Assembly: GCA_947628325.1 (NCBI GenBank)
Contig: CANQZL010000001.1
Coordinates: 1-41,340, forward strand
Reading direction: 5' to 3'
DNA from: an uncultured Bacilli bacterium
GTDB taxonomy: Bacteria > Bacillota_I > Bacilli_A > RF39 > UBA660
DNA: 41,340 nt
Below the pieces are notes generated by a model. It was not told the origin of the DNA and made no database searches. It saw only the letters and a program-made list of their open reading frames with translations. How positions within the stretch are numbered: the stretch's first letter is position 1; each line of letters begins with the position of its first letter. The position numbers and the translations under genes are program-made. Of the stretch, positions 14,022 to 36,150 are shown one piece after another.

Positions 14022-14095
14022 GGGGCTTTAGCCAAGCGGTAAGGCAAGGGACTGCAACTCCCTGAGCACCAGTTCGAATCTGGTAGGCCCCTCCA
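14022..14095 (+). tRNA. tRNA-Cys (anticodon GCA)
   Basis: Hand-folded: acceptor GGGGCTT/AGGCCCC, anticodon stem AGGGA/TCCCT with loop CTGCAAC, T arm ACCAG-TTCGAAT-CTGGT, discriminator U73 (typical of tRNA-Cys), encoded CCA. Confidence 0.9.
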
Positions 14096-14106
14096 AATTA
14101 TCTATT

Positions 14107-14131
14107 AAGTCCAGTATTTTAGGACTTTTTT
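14107..14131 (+). terminator. rho-independent terminator after tRNA-Cys
   Basis: Stem AAGTCC/GGACTT (14107-14112 / 14122-14127) followed by a T-run. Confidence 0.6.
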
Positions 14132-14149
14132 AATTTCAAAAATACTTCT

Positions 14150-14172
14150 AAACACACTTTCAAACACACTTT
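14150..14172. repeat. tandem direct repeat AAACACACTTT x2, adjacent to the int stop codon
   Basis: Copies at 14150-14160 and 14162-14172 are identical 11-mers separated by one C. Located in the attL-proximal arm. Confidence 0.6.
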
Positions 14173-14173
14173 T

Positions 14174-15271
14174 TTATAAATTATTTAACATATTAGTCAT
14201 TTGTTCTAACTCGCTTTTATACATATGAGTATACGTATTTAACGTAATAGATATATTTGAATGACCTAAATATTTTGACACTAATGCAATACTTGCTCCT
14301 TTATTAATTAACAGACTAGCACAACTATGTCTAAAATCATGAATTCTTATTTGTTTTACTCCTGCTAGACGACAATATTTATCTTTTCTTATTTGTATTG
14401 TATTTTCCGATAATGGTCTAGTATTTCCGAATATAAACCACTCATCAGAATAATCAACATAATGTTGAGCATTTTCTTTTAATGTTTTTAAGTCCTTTGT
14501 AAGGTTTTTTGTTAAAGGTATAACTCTTATACTATTTTTAGTCTTAGGGCTGGAAATTGTCCATTTCTCGCCTTTTATTTTAGTGGTTAATGTTTTAGTT
14601 ATATTTACGATTCCTTTTTTAAAATCTATATCGTTCCACGTTAAAGCGATACATTCTCCTTTTCTTAAACCTAAGAAATATAACATTTCAAAAAAAGTAT
14701 GCCAATCTAAATCATCGATTACTTTATCAAATTGTAAATATTCTTCATAAGTAAAAAATTGCATTTCTTTTTTTTGCTTTCCAACATCTTTAAAATTCTC
14801 TATAAATTTTATTAATGAATCACTAGTATTGTAATATATATTAGCATATCTTATTAATCTTTTAAATAAACCTAATATTTTATTTTTATATATAACACCT
14901 ACTGGTGTTTCTTTTAACTCGATAAGCCATCTACGATATACATTTAAATCTATAGCATTTACTTTATATTTTCCTAAAGGTTTTATATGTCTGTAGAAGT
15001 TAACATCTTTTATTATTGTTTGTTTCTTCACTAATGTTTTCTGAACTTCTAAGAAATCATAAAAAACTTGCTCTAATGTTATATTACTGGTATTTGCTTT
15101 ATTATCGGATATCTTAATACGATATCTTGCCTCTTCTTCGTCTGCCTCTTTTTTTGTTTTAAATTTAGGAGAAGTATAATCGTGCGAAATACCATAAATA
15201 TCTTTATATTTTATTCTAAAGAAATATTGTCTACCATCTTTAGTAGGCTTTTTTGATTTATATACTGCCAT
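14174..15271 (-). CDS. phage integrase, tyrosine recombinase
   Basis: Catalytic signature GLRKGE (Arg), HDFRHSCAS (H-x-x-R-H), LGHSNISITLNTYTH (His, Tyr), plus an N-terminal arm-binding-type domain. The ATG at 15271 has an AAGGAG RBS; the track start at 15280 is an upstream GTG. Confidence 0.92.
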   Translation of the reverse strand: MAVYKSKKPTKDGRQYFFRIKYKDIYGISHDYTSPKFKTKKEADEEEARYRIKISDNKANTSNITLEQVFYDFLEVQKTLVKKQTIIKDVNFYRHIKPLGKYKVNAIDLNVYRRWLIELKETPVGVIYKNKILGLFKRLIRYANIYYNTSDSLIKFIENFKDVGKQKKEMQFFTYEEYLQFDKVIDDLDWHTFFEMLYFLGLRKGECIALTWNDIDFKKGIVNITKTLTTKIKGEKWTISSPKTKNSIRVIPLTKNLTKDLKTLKENAQHYVDYSDEWFIFGNTRPLSENTIQIRKDKYCRLAGVKQIRIHDFRHSCASLLINKGASIALVSKYLGHSNISITLNTYTHMYKSELEQMTNMLNNL

Positions 15272-15382
15272 ATTAATCACTCCTTATTTCTATTGAATAG
15301 GAAGTAAATCTATGATAAAATAAATACATAGAAAAACTCCTATTGCGTATTGGTTTTTTTCTATAGGGCTTTATGCCTTTTT

Positions 15383-28702: not shown

Positions 28703-30319
28703 ATGAATGAAGAATATATAAAAGATGCTATTGAAAAAATAGTCGAGATATATTCTGATATTGAAAATGACTTACTAATAGAAATAGCGAGTCATTTTTC
28801 TTTGAATGAAGAATTTATTAATAGTGATTTCTGGCGATTAAAAAAATTAGATGAGATGAGTTTGTTAAATAATAAAACTATGAATATATTATCTGATTTA
28901 ACAAATAGATCTCCTAAAGAACTGAAAAAAGCAATAAATAATCTAGGATATAAGATGCTTAATTACGATTATTTAAAAGATGAATATGAAAATAATCATT
29001 TGCAAATCAATCCAGATATATTAATAAAAAATAGAACTATTCAAAATATAATAAAAACAGCTTATGATGAAACAAATGATAGTTTAATAAGAATATCAAA
29101 TAAAATAAGTGAATCTGTTAGAGCTTCCTATTTAGAAGTGTTGGAAGGATCTTATTTGAAAATATCTATGGGAACACATTCTTATCAAGAAGCGATAAGG
29201 AGTTCAATTAATGATTTATCAAATGAAGGAATTATTACATTAACTTTAAATACGACTGATGAAAGAGGAAGAGTTACAGGAATTAGAAATTATGATGTTG
29301 AAGGTACAGTAAGAAGAGATTTACTAACAAGTGTTAGAAAATTAAATAATGATATAAGTAATGATGTGGCCAATGAATTAAATTGTGAATACCTTTATTT
29401 ATCGGAACATTTAAGATGTAGGCCAACACATTTTGACTGGCAAGGAACAATAATAAAAAAAGAAGATCTAGAGAAAGTTACTGGGTATGGTACAGGAGGA
29501 GGTTTGGGTGGACCAAATTGCTCTCATTATTTTGAACCATACTTCGGAGATGCTAGAGGAAGCGATTTAAAGAGCATTTCTAAAGCAAATGCTGAAAAAG
29601 AATATTATTTATCTCAACATCAAAGATATCTCGAGCGAGGTGTCAGAAAATGGCTTAGAAAAGCAAATATGTATAAAGCAGCAGATGATGATGAATATTT
29701 TAAAAAATGTAATAAAAAAGTAAAAGAATGGCGTTTAAGAACGAAAGAATTTACTGAAAAATATAATCTTAAACGTGATTTTACTAGGGAATATGTTAAT
29801 GATAAAAGTATTGAAAATTTGTCTATTAATCACAATACAAAAGATAATAAAGAAGTATTAAAAGAATATTTGGGAAATACTCCTAAAAAAGATTTTGTTA
29901 AAACAATTAAGCAATACGAAAATGAAATAGTTGACCAATCTATTGAAAACGCTATAATAATAGAGGAAAACGGAGATGTTTATAGATTTGTTGGTTCAAG
30001 AGATTATGTAAATATTACTGGTAATTTTAAAAACGCTATAATTACTCATAACCATATAGGTTTAGATGATGAGTTGGGTGGTTCTTTTGGCAAAGACGAT
30101 TTTAATTTATTAGTAAGACATCAAAACATAAGAGAACTTAGGGAAGTTGATGAGAAATATCTTTACACTATGAAAGCGTTATCCAAGATAAAAGAAAGTG
30201 ATTATGATGACGCATATAGAAATGTTAGATTAATCGATGATGATGATTATAAACATCTAGTTATGAAAGTTTTAAATGATAAGGGTTTGATTAAGTATGA
30301 AAGAACAATTAGAAAATGA
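28703..30319 (+). CDS. head morphogenesis protein (MuF / SPP1 gp7 family) with an extra ~150-aa C-terminal domain
   Basis: The MuF core runs to about residue 370 (RCRPTHFDWQGT..., GGPNCSHYFEPY). The C-terminal extension contains IITHNHIGLDDELGGSFGKDDF. Confidence 0.8.
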   Translation: MNEEYIKDAIEKIVEIYSDIENDLLIEIASHFSLNEEFINSDFWRLKKLDEMSLLNNKTMNILSDLTNRSPKELKKAINNLGYKMLNYDYLKDEYENNHLQINPDILIKNRTIQNIIKTAYDETNDSLIRISNKISESVRASYLEVLEGSYLKISMGTHSYQEAIRSSINDLSNEGIITLTLNTTDERGRVTGIRNYDVEGTVRRDLLTSVRKLNNDISNDVANELNCEYLYLSEHLRCRPTHFDWQGTIIKKEDLEKVTGYGTGGGLGGPNCSHYFEPYFGDARGSDLKSISKANAEKEYYLSQHQRYLERGVRKWLRKANMYKAADDDEYFKKCNKKVKEWRLRTKEFTEKYNLKRDFTREYVNDKSIENLSINHNTKDNKEVLKEYLGNTPKKDFVKTIKQYENEIVDQSIENAIIIEENGDVYRFVGSRDYVNITGNFKNAIITHNHIGLDDELGGSFGKDDFNLLVRHQNIRELREVDEKYLYTMKALSKIKESDYDDAYRNVRLIDDDDYKHLVMKVLNDKGLIKYERTIRK

Positions 30320-30943: not shown

Positions 30944-31024
30944 ATGCCTTTTACTTAGTTAGGTTGAAAACTAAGGTGTGGGAATTACTTTGTTACCCAA
31001 ATAAAAAAATAGAGGAGAAAATTT

Positions 31025-31561
31025 ATGGAAGACGAAAAAAAACCAGTTACTCAGCCTGAAGAAAAAACTGAGGTGCCTGTTACTCAAACAGATGAAAAAA
31101 CTGAGGGGAAGACTTTTACTCAAGAAGAAGTAAATGCTATGGTTATAAAAGCTGAAAATAAAATCAATAAAAAATATGAAAATATTGATTTAGAAGCTTA
31201 TAACAAGTGGCAAGAGAGTCAAAAAACAGAAGCTGAAAAGCAGACAGAGTTAACTCAGAAATTAACAAATACTAATAACGAAAATATCTCATTAAAGCAA
31301 GAAAACCAAGTTTTAAAAACTGGTGTAAATGTTGATGATGTTGATTATGTAGTTTTTAAAGTATCAAAAATGGAAGGTGAATTCGAGGATAACCTAAAGG
31401 AATTTTTAGAGAAAAATCCTAAATATCTTGAAAATAACAAAAAACAAGCAAATACATCTACTACTACTGGATTCGACCAGAATAGTACGAGTAATCCAGT
31501 AAGTGATGAAAAAGCATATAAAGATAAAAAATATGCCAAGAATCCATATTATAAAAAATAA
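31025..31561 (+). CDS. capsid scaffolding protein (DUF4355-like)
   Basis: 178 aa, acidic and Gln-rich with coiled-coil character, directly upstream of the major capsid gene. AGAGGAG RBS. Confidence 0.75.
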   Translation: MEDEKKPVTQPEEKTEVPVTQTDEKTEGKTFTQEEVNAMVIKAENKINKKYENIDLEAYNKWQESQKTEAEKQTELTQKLTNTNNENISLKQENQVLKTGVNVDDVDYVVFKVSKMEGEFEDNLKEFLEKNPKYLENNKKQANTSTTTGFDQNSTSNPVSDEKAYKDKKYAKNPYYKK

Positions 31562-31572
31562 AAGAAAGAAGG

Positions 31573-32433
31573 ATGATAAAAGTGAAATATGGTGACGATT
31601 TTGTAGATGAACAATATTCAGATATATTAGAGCCTAATCTATATACTGATAATGTAATGATTCCAGACGTTACGTACAATGCCCAATATGAAGGCGATGT
31701 ACACTCTGGTTTAGTTCATATATATAAAGAGAAGAAATCTGGCAGAAAGGATCCTAAAACTCCAGCATCAGATTTTGAAGATGAAAAAACAGAAAATGAT
31801 TTAATTGATTTGAGATTAAATAATACTTATCAAAAATCTAAAAAGATTTATCAAGTTACTGCAAATTCATGCTCTTACGATAAAGCTGAAGTAAATTTAA
31901 GTAATTGTGTAAATGAAAATAAAGAAGATAGACAAGCTTCTGCATTAGCATGTTTGATTAATGAAGGAACAAAAGTTACTGTTGAAGCAAAAACTATAAC
32001 TGAAAAAGTAATTGAAATTAGAAAGAGCATCAGAAAAAAACATGCTTATCCTGATATTGTTTTTGCGTCAGTTGATGCATTTGCTCAAATGCTTAAAGAG
32101 GCAGGTAATAAATATACTCCAACGACAAATGATATGATAATAACATCTGGCCGTGTAGGTGTTTATTTAGGTATGACTTGGTTTGAAGTTGATGCATTTG
32201 AAGGAACTGCTAAATATTATGACTTCTCTGGAGCATTAAAAGAAATTAATCTAGATGATGTTGAATTAGTCGTATATGATCATAGTACCTTACATTTAGC
32301 TGATAATTTAAGCATGATGAGATTAAAAGATTCTGAGCACTTCACAGGTGTAAAAGCTCAAAATGAAATTAATACAGGCTTTAGAGTTACTAATAAAGAT
32401 AAAGTAGCTTATACTACATCAATTCCCAGCTGA
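31573..32433 (+). CDS. major capsid protein
   Basis: 286 aa, called from its position after the scaffold and before the connector genes. The start is ambiguous (ATG 31573 or GTG 31582). Confidence 0.75.
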   Translation: MIKVKYGDDFVDEQYSDILEPNLYTDNVMIPDVTYNAQYEGDVHSGLVHIYKEKKSGRKDPKTPASDFEDEKTENDLIDLRLNNTYQKSKKIYQVTANSCSYDKAEVNLSNCVNENKEDRQASALACLINEGTKVTVEAKTITEKVIEIRKSIRKKHAYPDIVFASVDAFAQMLKEAGNKYTPTTNDMIITSGRVGVYLGMTWFEVDAFEGTAKYYDFSGALKEINLDDVELVVYDHSTLHLADNLSMMRLKDSEHFTGVKAQNEINTGFRVTNKDKVAYTTSIPS

Positions 32434-32470
32434 GCCCTCAAAAAAAGTAACTGTTAAGTTACCAGAGGGC
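32425..32470 (+). promoter_or_regulatory. candidate +1 recoding signal: CCC_AGC_TGA plus downstream stem-loop
   Basis: Pro codon CCC (32425-32427) is followed by A, allowing a CCC to CCA slip. The two-tier stem GCCCTC...GAGGGC (32434-32439 / 32465-32470) encloses GTAACT-GTTA-AGTTAC (32447-32462). Confidence 0.5.
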
Positions 32471-32497
32471 AATGTTTATAATAAATTAGCATCAGAT

Positions 32498-32809
32498 TTG
32501 CAAGAAATTGAATTATCTGATAATAAACTTACAGGGACATTAAAATATGTAGAAAATTATGACGGTTTCTCTGAAGGAGCAGAAGGTAACTTCCTAGCTA
32601 TAGAAGTTGAAGAAGCTAAAAATGGTGACACTATACAATTTGAATTATCAGATTCTCAAATTAAGGGGAATGGTTTTTTAAATTCAGAAGATCCATTATT
32701 AGTATGTAAAATTCATTCAAATTCTCAAACTATAACTTTGACTAATGGTTCAACAAAGGTAGTCTTAGATTTGACTGGATTAACATTAGGTCAAAAATCA
32801 GGAGAATAA
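32498..32809 (+). CDS. capsid-associated beta-rich (Ig-like/decoration-type) domain; probably translated as a capsid extension, not independently
   Basis: The track ORF starts at a TTG with no RBS, yet the frame is open from 32408 with no ATG or GTG. It contains the LTGTLKYVENYDGFSEGAEGNFLAIEV motif seen in phage surface domains. Confidence 0.6.
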   Translation: MQEIELSDNKLTGTLKYVENYDGFSEGAEGNFLAIEVEEAKNGDTIQFELSDSQIKGNGFLNSEDPLLVCKIHSNSQTITLTNGSTKVVLDLTGLTLGQKSGE

Positions 32810-32810
32810 T

Positions 32811-33221
32811 TTGAATAGTTATATTGATTTTGATTATTATTCTAATTTTTATGATAAGCCAAAAGTTAGTAAGGAAGATTTTAACCAACTTGCTTTAGAC
32901 GCAACTAATAATATAAGAAGTCGTATTATGAATAAAAGTATAGTTAATTACGAAAAAATAGTTAAAGATACTACTTGTTTAATAGTCGATGTTTTATCCG
33001 ATATTAGTCAGTTGAAAGCAAGGAAAGAAAAACTCGCTTTAGGGAATGAAAAGATTTTATCATCTGAAAAAGTAGGAGACTATAGTAGAACTTTTTCAAG
33101 TGTATCAATCAACGAATTAAACGAATTAATTTCGTCAAAAGAAAAAGAAATCGATGATTTAATTACCAAAAATTTATTATTTACGGGTTTACTTTATACA
33201 GGAGTATATGTTATCGGATGA
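32811..33221 (+). CDS. head-tail connector protein (gp6/gp15-like)
   Basis: 136 aa. TTG start with an AGGAG RBS 7 nt upstream. The N-terminus YIDFDYYSNFY...FNQLALDATNNIRSRI is typical of head-tail connector proteins. Confidence 0.6.
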   Translation: MNSYIDFDYYSNFYDKPKVSKEDFNQLALDATNNIRSRIMNKSIVNYEKIVKDTTCLIVDVLSDISQLKARKEKLALGNEKILSSEKVGDYSRTFSSVSINELNELISSKEKEIDDLITKNLLFTGLLYTGVYVIG

Positions 33222-33603
33222 TTTGTTAAAAGATATTTCAGTTGTCAATGAAATATTAATAGATAATATGTTAGAAGGATATAAAGTTACTCATGTTAAA
33301 GGTTTTTGGTCATCTTCTGAAGGAATTAGTATTCAAGATACTAATATAGTTAAAAATGATGGCTTAAAAGTCATCATTTTTACTTCCGAAGAAGGATATA
33401 TTTCTCCTAAAGAATTTCAAGAGAACCATGAAAATAATAAATGGACGTTAAAAAATGATGATTATCTTGTAAAAGGTAAGATAAATAGTATTAATTCAAT
33501 TACTGAATTAAAAGATAAATACGAATATATGAAAATAACAAACGTTTCTTTAAAAGATTATGGTTCATTAGATATGCAGCATTTTGAAATAACAGGTGAG
33601 TAA
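33208..33603 (+). CDS. head-tail joining protein (head closure, by position)
   Basis: 131 aa, called by synteny. Confidence 0.5.
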   Translation: MLSDDLLKDISVVNEILIDNMLEGYKVTHVKGFWSSSEGISIQDTNIVKNDGLKVIIFTSEEGYISPKEFQENHENNKWTLKNDDYLVKGKINSINSITELKDKYEYMKITNVSLKDYGSLDMQHFEITGE

Positions 33604-35093: not shown

Positions 35094-35591
35094 ATGGAAG
35101 AATATATAAAGTTAAAAAAAAGAAATACATTAAGAGTTGGCATTATGGATGAAGAAGGTAATGTCAAATTAGATCATAACGGGAAAGAAGTTTATATTGA
35201 ATTCGATTTAGAAGATATAAATCTCCCAGATAACTACAGTAAATGCGATGCATTAATAAAAAAATCTTCAAATACGTTAAAAATGAAAACTATAGCAATT
35301 AATAAAAGAGAAGATGTTAAAGGAAAAGGAATAATGTCCAAAAATGAAGAAGACATTCAGAAGGCTTTAAAAGATTATTATAAATCTGTAGAAACTGCTA
35401 TGGATATGTTTTTAGGTTTAGGTGCAACAAGAAAAATTTTTGGAAACAGACGTTATTTGACTATGTGGGATGATTTAAATGAATATTTGCAACCAATATT
35501 ACCAAAATTACAAATCAATTTTGAAAGTATTAGTGAGCAAATAAAAAAGAAATATGCCTCAAAGGAAGATAATGTATTAAGAAATGAATAG
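35094..35591 (+). CDS. tail assembly chaperone (gpG-like)
   Basis: 165 aa, the first of two ORFs before the tape measure gene. Confidence 0.6.
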   Translation: MEEYIKLKKRNTLRVGIMDEEGNVKLDHNGKEVYIEFDLEDINLPDNYSKCDALIKKSSNTLKMKTIAINKREDVKGKGIMSKNEEDIQKALKDYYKSVETAMDMFLGLGATRKIFGNRRYLTMWDDLNEYLQPILPKLQINFESISEQIKKKYASKEDNVLRNE

Positions 35592-36150
35592 TTATCCAGA
35601 GTTTATTGAATTAAAATCTAAAACAAGATATAAGATAAACACTAGTTATAAGAATGCTTTAAAATGTGATGATGTATATAAAGATGATAGCATTGGTGAA
35701 TATGAAAAAAATCTTGCAATCATTTATATTTTATTGGGAGAAGAAGCATTAAAAGATAGGAAAAATTATCCAGAAATAATTGAATTAATTTCAAAATATT
35801 TAAATCGTGGAAATGAAGTTACGAGAGATGATTTTTCTATTCCATCAATGGATTTTGTACAAGACGACGGATATATTAATGCGTCTTTTATGTCAGATTA
35901 TGGTATAGATTTGAAACAAACTGATATGCATTGGTATAAATTTTTTGATTACTTGCAAGGTTTAACAGAAAATAGTGTTTTAAATCGTGTTCGCTCTATT
36001 AGAGAAGAACCATTATCAGGCAAAAAAGGTAAAGAACTTTCTAGATGGACAGAATTAAAAAAACAAGTTGAATTAAAGATGAAAAAAACTAAAGAAGAAA
36101 GAGAACTAGATAAATTTTGGGAGGAGGAATTTAACTTTAAAAAGAGGTGA
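35584..36150 (+). CDS. tail assembly chaperone partner (gpT-like position), own ATG
   Basis: 188 aa. It overlaps the upstream ORF by 8 nt and is in the +1 frame relative to it. Confidence 0.55.
   Translation: MNSYPEFIELKSKTRYKINTSYKNALKCDDVYKDDSIGEYEKNLAIIYILLGEEALKDRKNYPEIIELISKYLNRGNEVTRDDFSIPSMDFVQDDGYINASFMSDYGIDLKQTDMHWYKFFDYLQGLTENSVLNRVRSIREEPLSGKKGKELSRWTELKKQVELKMKKTKEERELDKFWEEEFNFKKR

Follow-up and report, generated by a model that had tools for sequence, protein, structure and literature searches.

Phage structural proteins can acquire Ig-like domains through −1, +1 or in-frame joining (Fraser et al. 2006, discussed in PMC5009743), examples being T3 10B, Lactobacillus phage A2 and the BIG2 domain of phi29 gp8. 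The closest described +1 systems are the cps gene of Listeria phage PSA, which shifts at ACA_CCC_(UCC_GAA) and carries a 3' pseudoknot (Zimmer et al. 2003, via PMC5009743); the tsh genes of Listeria phages PSA, A118 and A500, which shift at CCC_UGA (PMC5009743); and the major tail protein gp17.1/gp17.1* of Bacillus phage SPP1, whose experimentally established shift at CCC.UAA gives short and long forms at ~3:1 (PMC6316719), the extension being of the FN3 type (PMC6316719, PMC8718954). The locus described here belongs to a prophage in a 41,340-nt stretch of DNA (the window; contig CANQZL010000001.1, positions 1 to 41,340) from an uncultured Bacilli bacterium, and consists of a major capsid protein gene, an overlapping open reading frame (ORF) in the +1 frame and a hairpin just past the capsid stop codon. 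Very probably, the capsid gene makes a second, longer protein by a +1 shift at a CCC codon near its 3' end. The mechanism class is already known from SPP1 and PSA; the window is a well-supported new example of it and not a new mechanism.

The capsid gene (31582..32433, + strand; 283 aa, 32.0 kDa) ends ...ACA TCA ATT CCC AGC TGA, with CCC at 32425-27 and the zero-frame stop at 32431-33. The +1 frame opens after TAG 32405-07, overlaps the last 26 nt of the capsid gene (32408..32433, + strand) and continues to a stop at 32807-09 with no ATG, GTG or TTG before TTG 32498..32500 (+ strand). The latter, which is the only in-frame start candidate and begins a 103-aa ORF, encodes the conserved Leu of a DLQ motif, and a crude scan of the 20 nt before it (ataataaattagcatcagat) finds no Shine-Dalgarno (SD)-like motif, although the same scan finds one at 19 of the 27 other + strand prophage genes. 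An ORF that overlaps the capsid gene in +1 and has no initiation signal of its own is thus present in the window, as it is in the relatives considered below. CCC (32425-27) is the sole codon of the overlap that can re-pair in +1, and it is rare: it accounts for 7 of 6010 codons, or 6% of Pro codons, in a window of 26.4% G+C. The following codon, AGC, makes up 5.7% of Ser codons, and no phage-encoded tRNA-Pro was found in the window, whose tRNAs are tRNA-Thr and tRNA-Cys only. Without the ORF the capsid-adaptor gap would be 377 nt, the largest in the gene run examined, where the other inter-gene gaps from the terminase gene onwards range from −23 to +178 nt. The capsid end, the open frame at 32408-32809, the missing start and the SD-less TTG had all been given correctly in a first-pass annotation, which proposed the +1 slip from CCC to CCA into the domain ORF; that proposal now draws support from the conservation of the junction, the point at which the domain fold begins and a hairpin stronger than coding alone would call for.

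The proposed course of translation is that most ribosomes would read ...ATT CCC AGC TGA and release the 283-aa (32 kDa) HK97-fold capsid protein. A minority would shift +1 at the putative site CCC_A (32425..32428, + strand) as the P-site peptidyl-tRNA-Pro on the rare CCC (32425-27) re-pairs with CCA (32426-28), the standard Watson-Crick match for a UGG anticodon, while the A site holds the rare Ser codon AGC ahead of the TGA stop (32428..32433, + strand). Shifted ribosomes would then read GCT GAG CCC TCA... to 32806, so that the extension (32426..32809, + strand, stop 32807-09 included) would contribute 126 aa after the shared Pro to a 408-aa, 45.5-kDa capsid protein with a C-terminal beta-sandwich domain of ~125 aa and the computed junction ...VAYTTSIP-AEPSKK.... 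A hairpin that starts 6 nt further on, where the mRNA enters the ribosome, would slow translation; it is probably a 3' stimulator and would substitute for the stop codon that most relatives carry right after CCC. The long form would co-assemble in the shell as a minority subunit with its domain displayed on the capsid surface, so that virions are predicted to contain species of 32.0 and 45.5 kDa and the trans-frame junction peptide VAYTTSIPAEPSK. The domain is most plausibly a dispensable weak adhesion module, a reading suggested by analogy with SPP1 gp17.1* and with the phage Ig-like domains. What we infer from sequence is that shifting takes place, how efficient it is, what the hairpin does and how the domain functions.

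PSA cps is an apt comparison, as the first-pass annotation had recognized, since there too a +1 shift occurs at ACA_CCC, with a sense codon next and a pseudoknot on the 3' side (PMC5009743). Both are major capsid genes with a +1 site at a rare Pro codon, CCC, close to the 3' end, a sense codon after CCC, an RNA structure just downstream and a low-G+C host, and both would give a C-terminally extended minor capsid species, proven by protein sequencing for PSA and predicted for the window. In the window, however, the structural support is for a hairpin only, a pseudoknot being indistinguishable from controls, and the stop comes one codon past CCC. The likeness is one of arrangement; the phage database gave no match of the window capsid or domain to those of PSA.

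The upstream gene qualifies as an HK97-fold major capsid gene by profile, fold and head-module context. It matches the phrog_267 major head protein profile (E 1.7e-9), and an AlphaFold2 (AF2) model of the fusion, in which an HK97-fold body carries a separately folded C-terminal domain, matches HK97-fold capsids by Foldseek, among them 8e16_A (E 1.4e-9), T7 3j7w and phi29 gp8; the search gave 205 matches at E <= 1e-3, and the best 50 of the 205 are almost all phage capsid chains. Its neighbors are genes for portal, MuF-like protein and scaffold upstream and head-tail adaptor downstream. The ORF list begins the gene at ATG 31573, but GTG 31582 is more likely the start, because an SD sequence AAGGA precedes it at normal spacing and the same call is made in near-identical contigs; the A of ATG 31573 directly follows AGG with no spacer.

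Comparison was made with 29 loci from a genome collection, all of them from rabbit-gut ("Lapin") metagenome-assembled genomes of Bacilli or Clostridia, and with further relatives from ENA and Logan metagenome assemblies that include a human-gut (Hadza) sample. Among the 27 distinct +1 junctions of the 29 genome loci, 25 show an upstream gene that ends A(C/T)N CCC TAA/TAG and a domain in +1, so that CCC overlaps CCT, and locus L047 supplies a 26th; three more distinct junctions (the window, the L040 lineage and L048) are of a CCC-AGY type. In all there are 29 distinct +1 junctions, every one of them with CCC, which is invariant in 25 of the 25 that were aligned. Column entropy in this alignment drops to zero at CCC; three bases upstream, at the A, conservation sets in abruptly. 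Past the stop the +1 frame has entropies of 0.63, 0.48 and 0.96 at codon positions 1, 2 and 3, a third-position excess that reads as a coding signature in +1. No start codon with an SD sequence is conserved among the relatives, five loci lack any in-frame start over the first 27 codons, and at several the +1 frame opens merely 1-3 codons before CCC. The overlap and the missing start are therefore conserved, at 26 CCC-TAA/TAG and three CCC-AGY junctions, and a conserved start codon with a ribosome binding site (RBS), which would have spoken against the first-pass annotation, was seen in no relative. Nor does the ORF show the conserved start and RBS of its own that would be expected of a free-standing decoration protein such as Hoc, Soc or gpD.

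The genes upstream of these junctions fall into 15 clusters unrelated by BLASTP. Among them are major head proteins from at least six PHROG families (phrog_422, 544, 267, 1328, 909 and 10) and major tail proteins from at least three PHROG groups (phrog_3099/820, 88 and 158), the latter including loci L008, L015 and L034. With upstream genes so diverse, the shared CCC-stop appears to belong to the appended module and not to capsid ancestry. The 26 relatives with CCC_UAA or CCC_UAG, some of them on major tail proteins (L008, L015, L034), resemble SPP1 and the tsh genes in the use of a rare CCC that overlaps CCU, and resemble SPP1 also in placing a beta-sandwich of the non-essential type on a polymeric virion protein. 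The window itself differs, as it has CCC_AGC_UGA in place of a shifty stop, and the stop codon right after CCC that gives SPP1 and tsh a slow A site is absent from it; the window fits the PSA cps subtype. The core group of relatives adds a conserved GC-rich hairpin to the SPP1-like site; we know of no such hairpin reported for SPP1.

Some loci depart from the simple arrangement of one recipient gene and one domain. L016 (CANQTE010000004.1; 84 and 2512) carries the CCC_TAG, hairpin and domain cassette twice, once after a gene ~2.4 kb upstream that is probably the capsid gene and once after a phrog_88 major tail protein, an arrangement that mirrors PSA, where both cps and tsh are shifted. In L034 (1872..2669) two tandem domain copies occupy a single +1 ORF after a phrog_158-like major tail protein ending ACA CCC TAA. 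A distant subgroup of ~36% identity (L005 2983-3003; L049 1489-1503) has a ~650-aa upstream gene ending ACA AAC CCT TAA, with the domain in the −1 frame and a conserved TTG 6 nt past the stop, compatible with either reinitiation or a −1 slip at C_CCU_UAA.

The domain is also joined in other ways. In L014 (2481-2498) and L032 (2478-2495) it lies in a −1 frame that opens inside an A9 run (GTT AAA AAA AAA GCG GAG TAA), and in L012 (~2470-2500) it is in frame via an A10 run, the other two frames stopping at once; these A-run joins are candidates for −1 ribosomal or transcriptional slippage. Close relatives of the window capsid (65-74% identity) are similarly varied, some having no ORF and the adaptor gene directly next, and others having different in-frame C-terminal domains that match Pfam PF18316, PF12733 or PF09479. 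This capsid family therefore accepts accessory surface domains at its C-terminus.

The window junction, ATT CCC AGC TGA, is identical in four further contigs of its lineage. A sister lineage (L040-43; four contigs), whose domain is 81% and capsid 92% identical to those of the window, has ATT CCC AGT TGA. The CCC_AGC/AGT junction is found in 8 contigs from different samples and two lineages, with the frame intact in every one. The window differs from the L015/L003-type junction (CCC TAG [TC]GA GCC CTC) only in the three bases after CCC, and the distance from CCC to the hairpin is the same as in the CCC-stop members. L048, whose capsid is unrelated and whose domain is 38% identical, reads TCT CCC AGC GAC TGA with the domain in +1, and its protein similarity to the window domain begins at the slip site. 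Since CCC followed by AGY is kept in so divergent a locus as well, it is to judge from these sequences a maintained alternative and not a one-off lesion.

The candidate 3' stimulator is a two-tier GC-rich hairpin at 32434..32470 (+ strand), GCCCTC-A7-GTAACT-GTTA-AGTTAC-CA-GAGGGC. The structure had been picked out 6 nt past the slip codon in the first pass, and it coincides with the minimum free energy fold. An RNA structure is thus present a few nt past the shift codon, as in PSA cps, with a stimulatory role that is probable. Its 86-nt context has a folding energy of −17.2 kcal/mol (z = −2.6), which 1 of 200 dinucleotide shuffles equaled or bettered. A second comparison kept the amino acids fixed, resampled codons from family usage and folded 42 nt for each sequence: the window core has −15.2 kcal/mol against −4.8 +/- 2.8 for 300 synonymous recodings, none of them as stable (z −3.7), and the native 42 nt surpasses at least 98% of recodings at all 25 core +1 junctions (mean z −3.6). 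The hairpin is composed of codons that are rare here, CCC, GAG and GGC. Its outer stem GCCCTC/GAGGGC is replaced by GCCCG/CGGGC in four sequences (UA to GC) and by GCCCC/GGGGC in one with pairing kept, and in L040 a synonymous Val change together with a Leu-to-Gln change turns the inner stem GGTA/TACC into GGTT/AACC. The strongest hairpins are those of the two core CCC_AGY lineages, −15.2 and −17.0 versus −9 to −13 kcal/mol, and the −1 (L014, L032) and in-frame (L012) variants lack the hairpin and have no excess structure (z −0.7 to +0.9). This pattern fits a +1 stimulator that would matter most when the A site holds no stop codon.

Other roles and extensions of the structure were considered. 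A pseudoknot between the A-rich internal loop and a downstream GUUUU found no support, as the candidate has only 3 A-U pairs in the window and the pairing, at 78% in relatives, is no better than in slid controls. The possibility of an intrinsic terminator was likewise dropped, no terminator being found in 31000-33500, and an Rfam search of 32300-32700 returned nothing meaningful.

The appended domain belongs to a large family without annotation. The 133-aa translation from 32408 has no Pfam match above noise and a single PHROG match, phrog_31690, of unknown function. There are 25 close homologs and at least 691 by profile search; Pfam annotates the domain in none of the family, and the 120 of the at least 691 that were listed are all called as nameless stand-alone ORFs of 69-209 aa. 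The starts assigned to these ORFs are scattered, and similarity extends well upstream of the position of the window TTG (...HPSPAxKTVTVxLPxGxVYGKNVxDLQ...). Searched against the phage GenBank collection, the DNA of 31000-33300 and, by tblastn, the domain gave no match, and the only match to the capsid was a PinkBerry-associated phage at 30% identity; protein-pattern scans of IMG/VR and JGI metagenomes gave no relative, and two DNA patterns for the junction or hairpin gave no match in IMG/VR.

The AF2 model of the domain is a compact, almost entirely beta structure, a beta-sandwich, with a predicted local distance difference test (pLDDT) score of 90. The first-pass annotation had taken the translation upstream of the TTG to be continuous protein running into the domain, and the model agrees: residues 11-30, encoded upstream of the TTG, are predicted at pLDDT 92-95 and supply the first strands and a short helix. 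Its likening of the product to the phage Ig-like domains fares less evenly. The modeled fold is a beta-sandwich, but the Pfam search found no Ig-like or FN3 profile match, and the best Foldseek matches in the PDB, to FN3, Fc-receptor and monobody chains, are weak (E 0.02-0.2, TM-score 0.3-0.4), so that the label is a loose one; in BFVD the only significant matches are three uncharacterized phage proteins. The domain accordingly differs from the FN3-type extension of SPP1, lacking an FN3 Pfam match and reaching FN3 by Foldseek at only E ~0.03, and from the classical Ig-like cases in matching no Pfam Ig-like family. It resembles the latter in its modes of joining, by +1 in most loci, −1 at A9 in L014 and L032 and in frame in L012, and in its presence on both capsids and tail tubes, which matches the described "indifference" to joining mode. 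Where joining is by +1, the shift site (ACN CCC TAR) apparently accompanies the domain across unrelated recipient genes, and so does the hairpin in the core group; we know of no description of this for the classical Ig-like cases.

Selection on the domain was estimated from the window and the L040 lineage. The ratio of nonsynonymous to synonymous substitution (dN/dS) in the domain body is 0.16 at dS ~0.7, a sign of purifying selection on that part of the ORF. From the slip site to the TTG the values are different, the 24 codons there having dN 0.40, dS 0.29 and dN/dS ~1.4. An overlapping RNA constraint would account for the low dS and for the amino-acid changes by which the stem is rebuilt.

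Several points tell against a +1 shift stimulated by the hairpin. The dN/dS of ~1.4 also fits a relaxed protein constraint, as would apply if the stretch were untranslated in the window lineage. The window CCC precedes a sense codon, not a stop as in most relatives and SPP1, and therefore pausing needs another source; a "hungry codon" explanation based on the rare AGC is disfavored by the sister lineage, where the codon is the common AGT. Notable hairpins are lacking in L048 (CCC_AGC) and in L047 and L035, which are distant CCC_TAG members, and the hairpin is therefore not a general requirement. Covariation in a fixed register is modest and RNAalifold finds no consensus fold on the codon-register alignment, because about half of the sequences form the outer stem one column off register. 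Finally, the compared sequences share phylogeny, and their counts are not counts of independent events.

The alternative that best survives, although an unlikely one, is that the ORF is an ordinary small gene translated from TTG 32498 into a free 103-aa (11 kDa) decoration or accessory protein, the upstream frame being incidental. TTG is a legal start, it is common to the window and L040 lineages, and the change in dN/dS from ~1.4 to 0.16 occurs across it. The probability that 30 codons stay open by chance in DNA of 26% G+C is ~0.07 by a base-composition estimate, which alone is not decisive. The codon is, however, not preceded by an SD-like motif, and the conserved Leu that it encodes in the DLQ motif is specified by TTA or CTA in other members. 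It is residue 31 of the 133-aa read, past the first strands and inside the modeled helix, so that initiation here would remove the first strands of a confidently modeled fold. Similarity to the 38%-identical L048 domain already starts at the slip site, the family as a whole keeps no single start position and five loci lack one, and a TTG start explains neither the invariant CCC nor the hairpin.

It is considerably less probable still that the window lineage is a decaying relic, in which an ancestral CCC_TAG mutated to CCC_AGC_TGA and the domain is now little or not expressed. The three-base difference from the L015/L003 type and the raised dN right after the junction are what such a history would leave. 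The purifying selection on the domain body (dN/dS 0.16 at dS ~0.7) is not, nor is the intact frame in 8 of 8 contigs of both lineages from different samples. A relic would also have to carry the strongest hairpins of the family, with an inner stem rebuilt by compensatory changes between the two lineages, and to share its CCC_AGC with the very divergent L048.

There is equally little room for a single in-frame capsid-domain fusion, with the frameshift an assembly or sequencing error, or for termination at TGA followed by reinitiation. In-frame fusions do occur, with this domain in L012 and with other beta-sandwich domains on the window capsid family, but the same junction recurs in assemblies made independently from several samples, no long homopolymer is present at the site, and 29 distinct +1 junctions would all need the identical +1 correction at CCC. 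Reinitiation has a possible parallel in the conserved TTG 6 nt past the upstream stop in the distant L005 and L049; in the window the nearest start is 65 nt past the stop and behind a stable hairpin, and many relatives have no start. Of the remaining readings, an alternative code with TGA as Trp, which would extend the capsid by 8 codons to TAA 32455, was rejected since TGG makes up 0.93% of codons, a normal share, since ORFs called with table 11 match Pfam profiles over their full length and since in at least one case a TGA stop shares bases with the ATG of the following gene, as ATGA; stop-codon readthrough was rejected since the domain is in +1 and not in frame; and transcriptional slippage at the A7 run (32440-46) is irrelevant since the run lies past the capsid stop.

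If the +1 shift at CCC is taken as the preferred reading, the chances appear evenly balanced that the shift site (ACN CCC TAR or CCC AGC), the domain and the core-group hairpin form one portable recoding cassette that moves, as a whole, between unrelated recipients, the capsid and tail-tube genes of phages from the rabbit gut. The signal would then have been imported ready-made, and not evolved in place after an out-of-frame insertion, and CCC_AGY would count as another +1 site, one that needs no stop codon and has been retained across deep divergence. For annotation, a family of at least 691 unannotated proteins has been called as orphan small ORFs with arbitrary starts, and in the relatives examined such ORFs appear to be the C-terminal halves of capsid and tail-tube proteins. 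The loci also offer a natural series on one homologous domain (CCC-stop with hairpin, CCC-sense with a stronger hairpin, CCC-sense without hairpin, −1 at A9 and in-frame fusion) that could be used to dissect the contributions of the individual elements in low-G+C Firmicutes-type hosts. With respect to phage ecology, the family points to a widespread exchangeable surface domain on gut phages, which may function in adhesion.

The prophage that contains the locus is integrated beside a tRNA-Cys gene (14022..14095), which directly adjoins a tyrosine integrase gene (14174..15280, − strand; PF00589); the prophage probably has its left attachment site here (14022..15280), with probable host sequence further left. 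By Pfam and PHROG matches the head module is of the SPP1 type, with portal, MuF-like minor capsid protein 2, scaffold, capsid and adaptor. The MuF-like protein (28703..30319) matches PF06152 over residues 1-351 and has a ~190-aa C-terminal part without a Pfam match; its counterparts in L001, L044, L045 and L046 have toxin-type C-terminal domains (CdiA_C, Ntox50, ADPrib_exo_Tox), which suggests that this head protein carries a variable toxin cargo. Further downstream (35094..36150) two overlapping genes of 165 and 188 aa, the second a Phage_Gp15 match, occupy the position of tail assembly chaperones and precede a 772-aa gene of tape-measure size.

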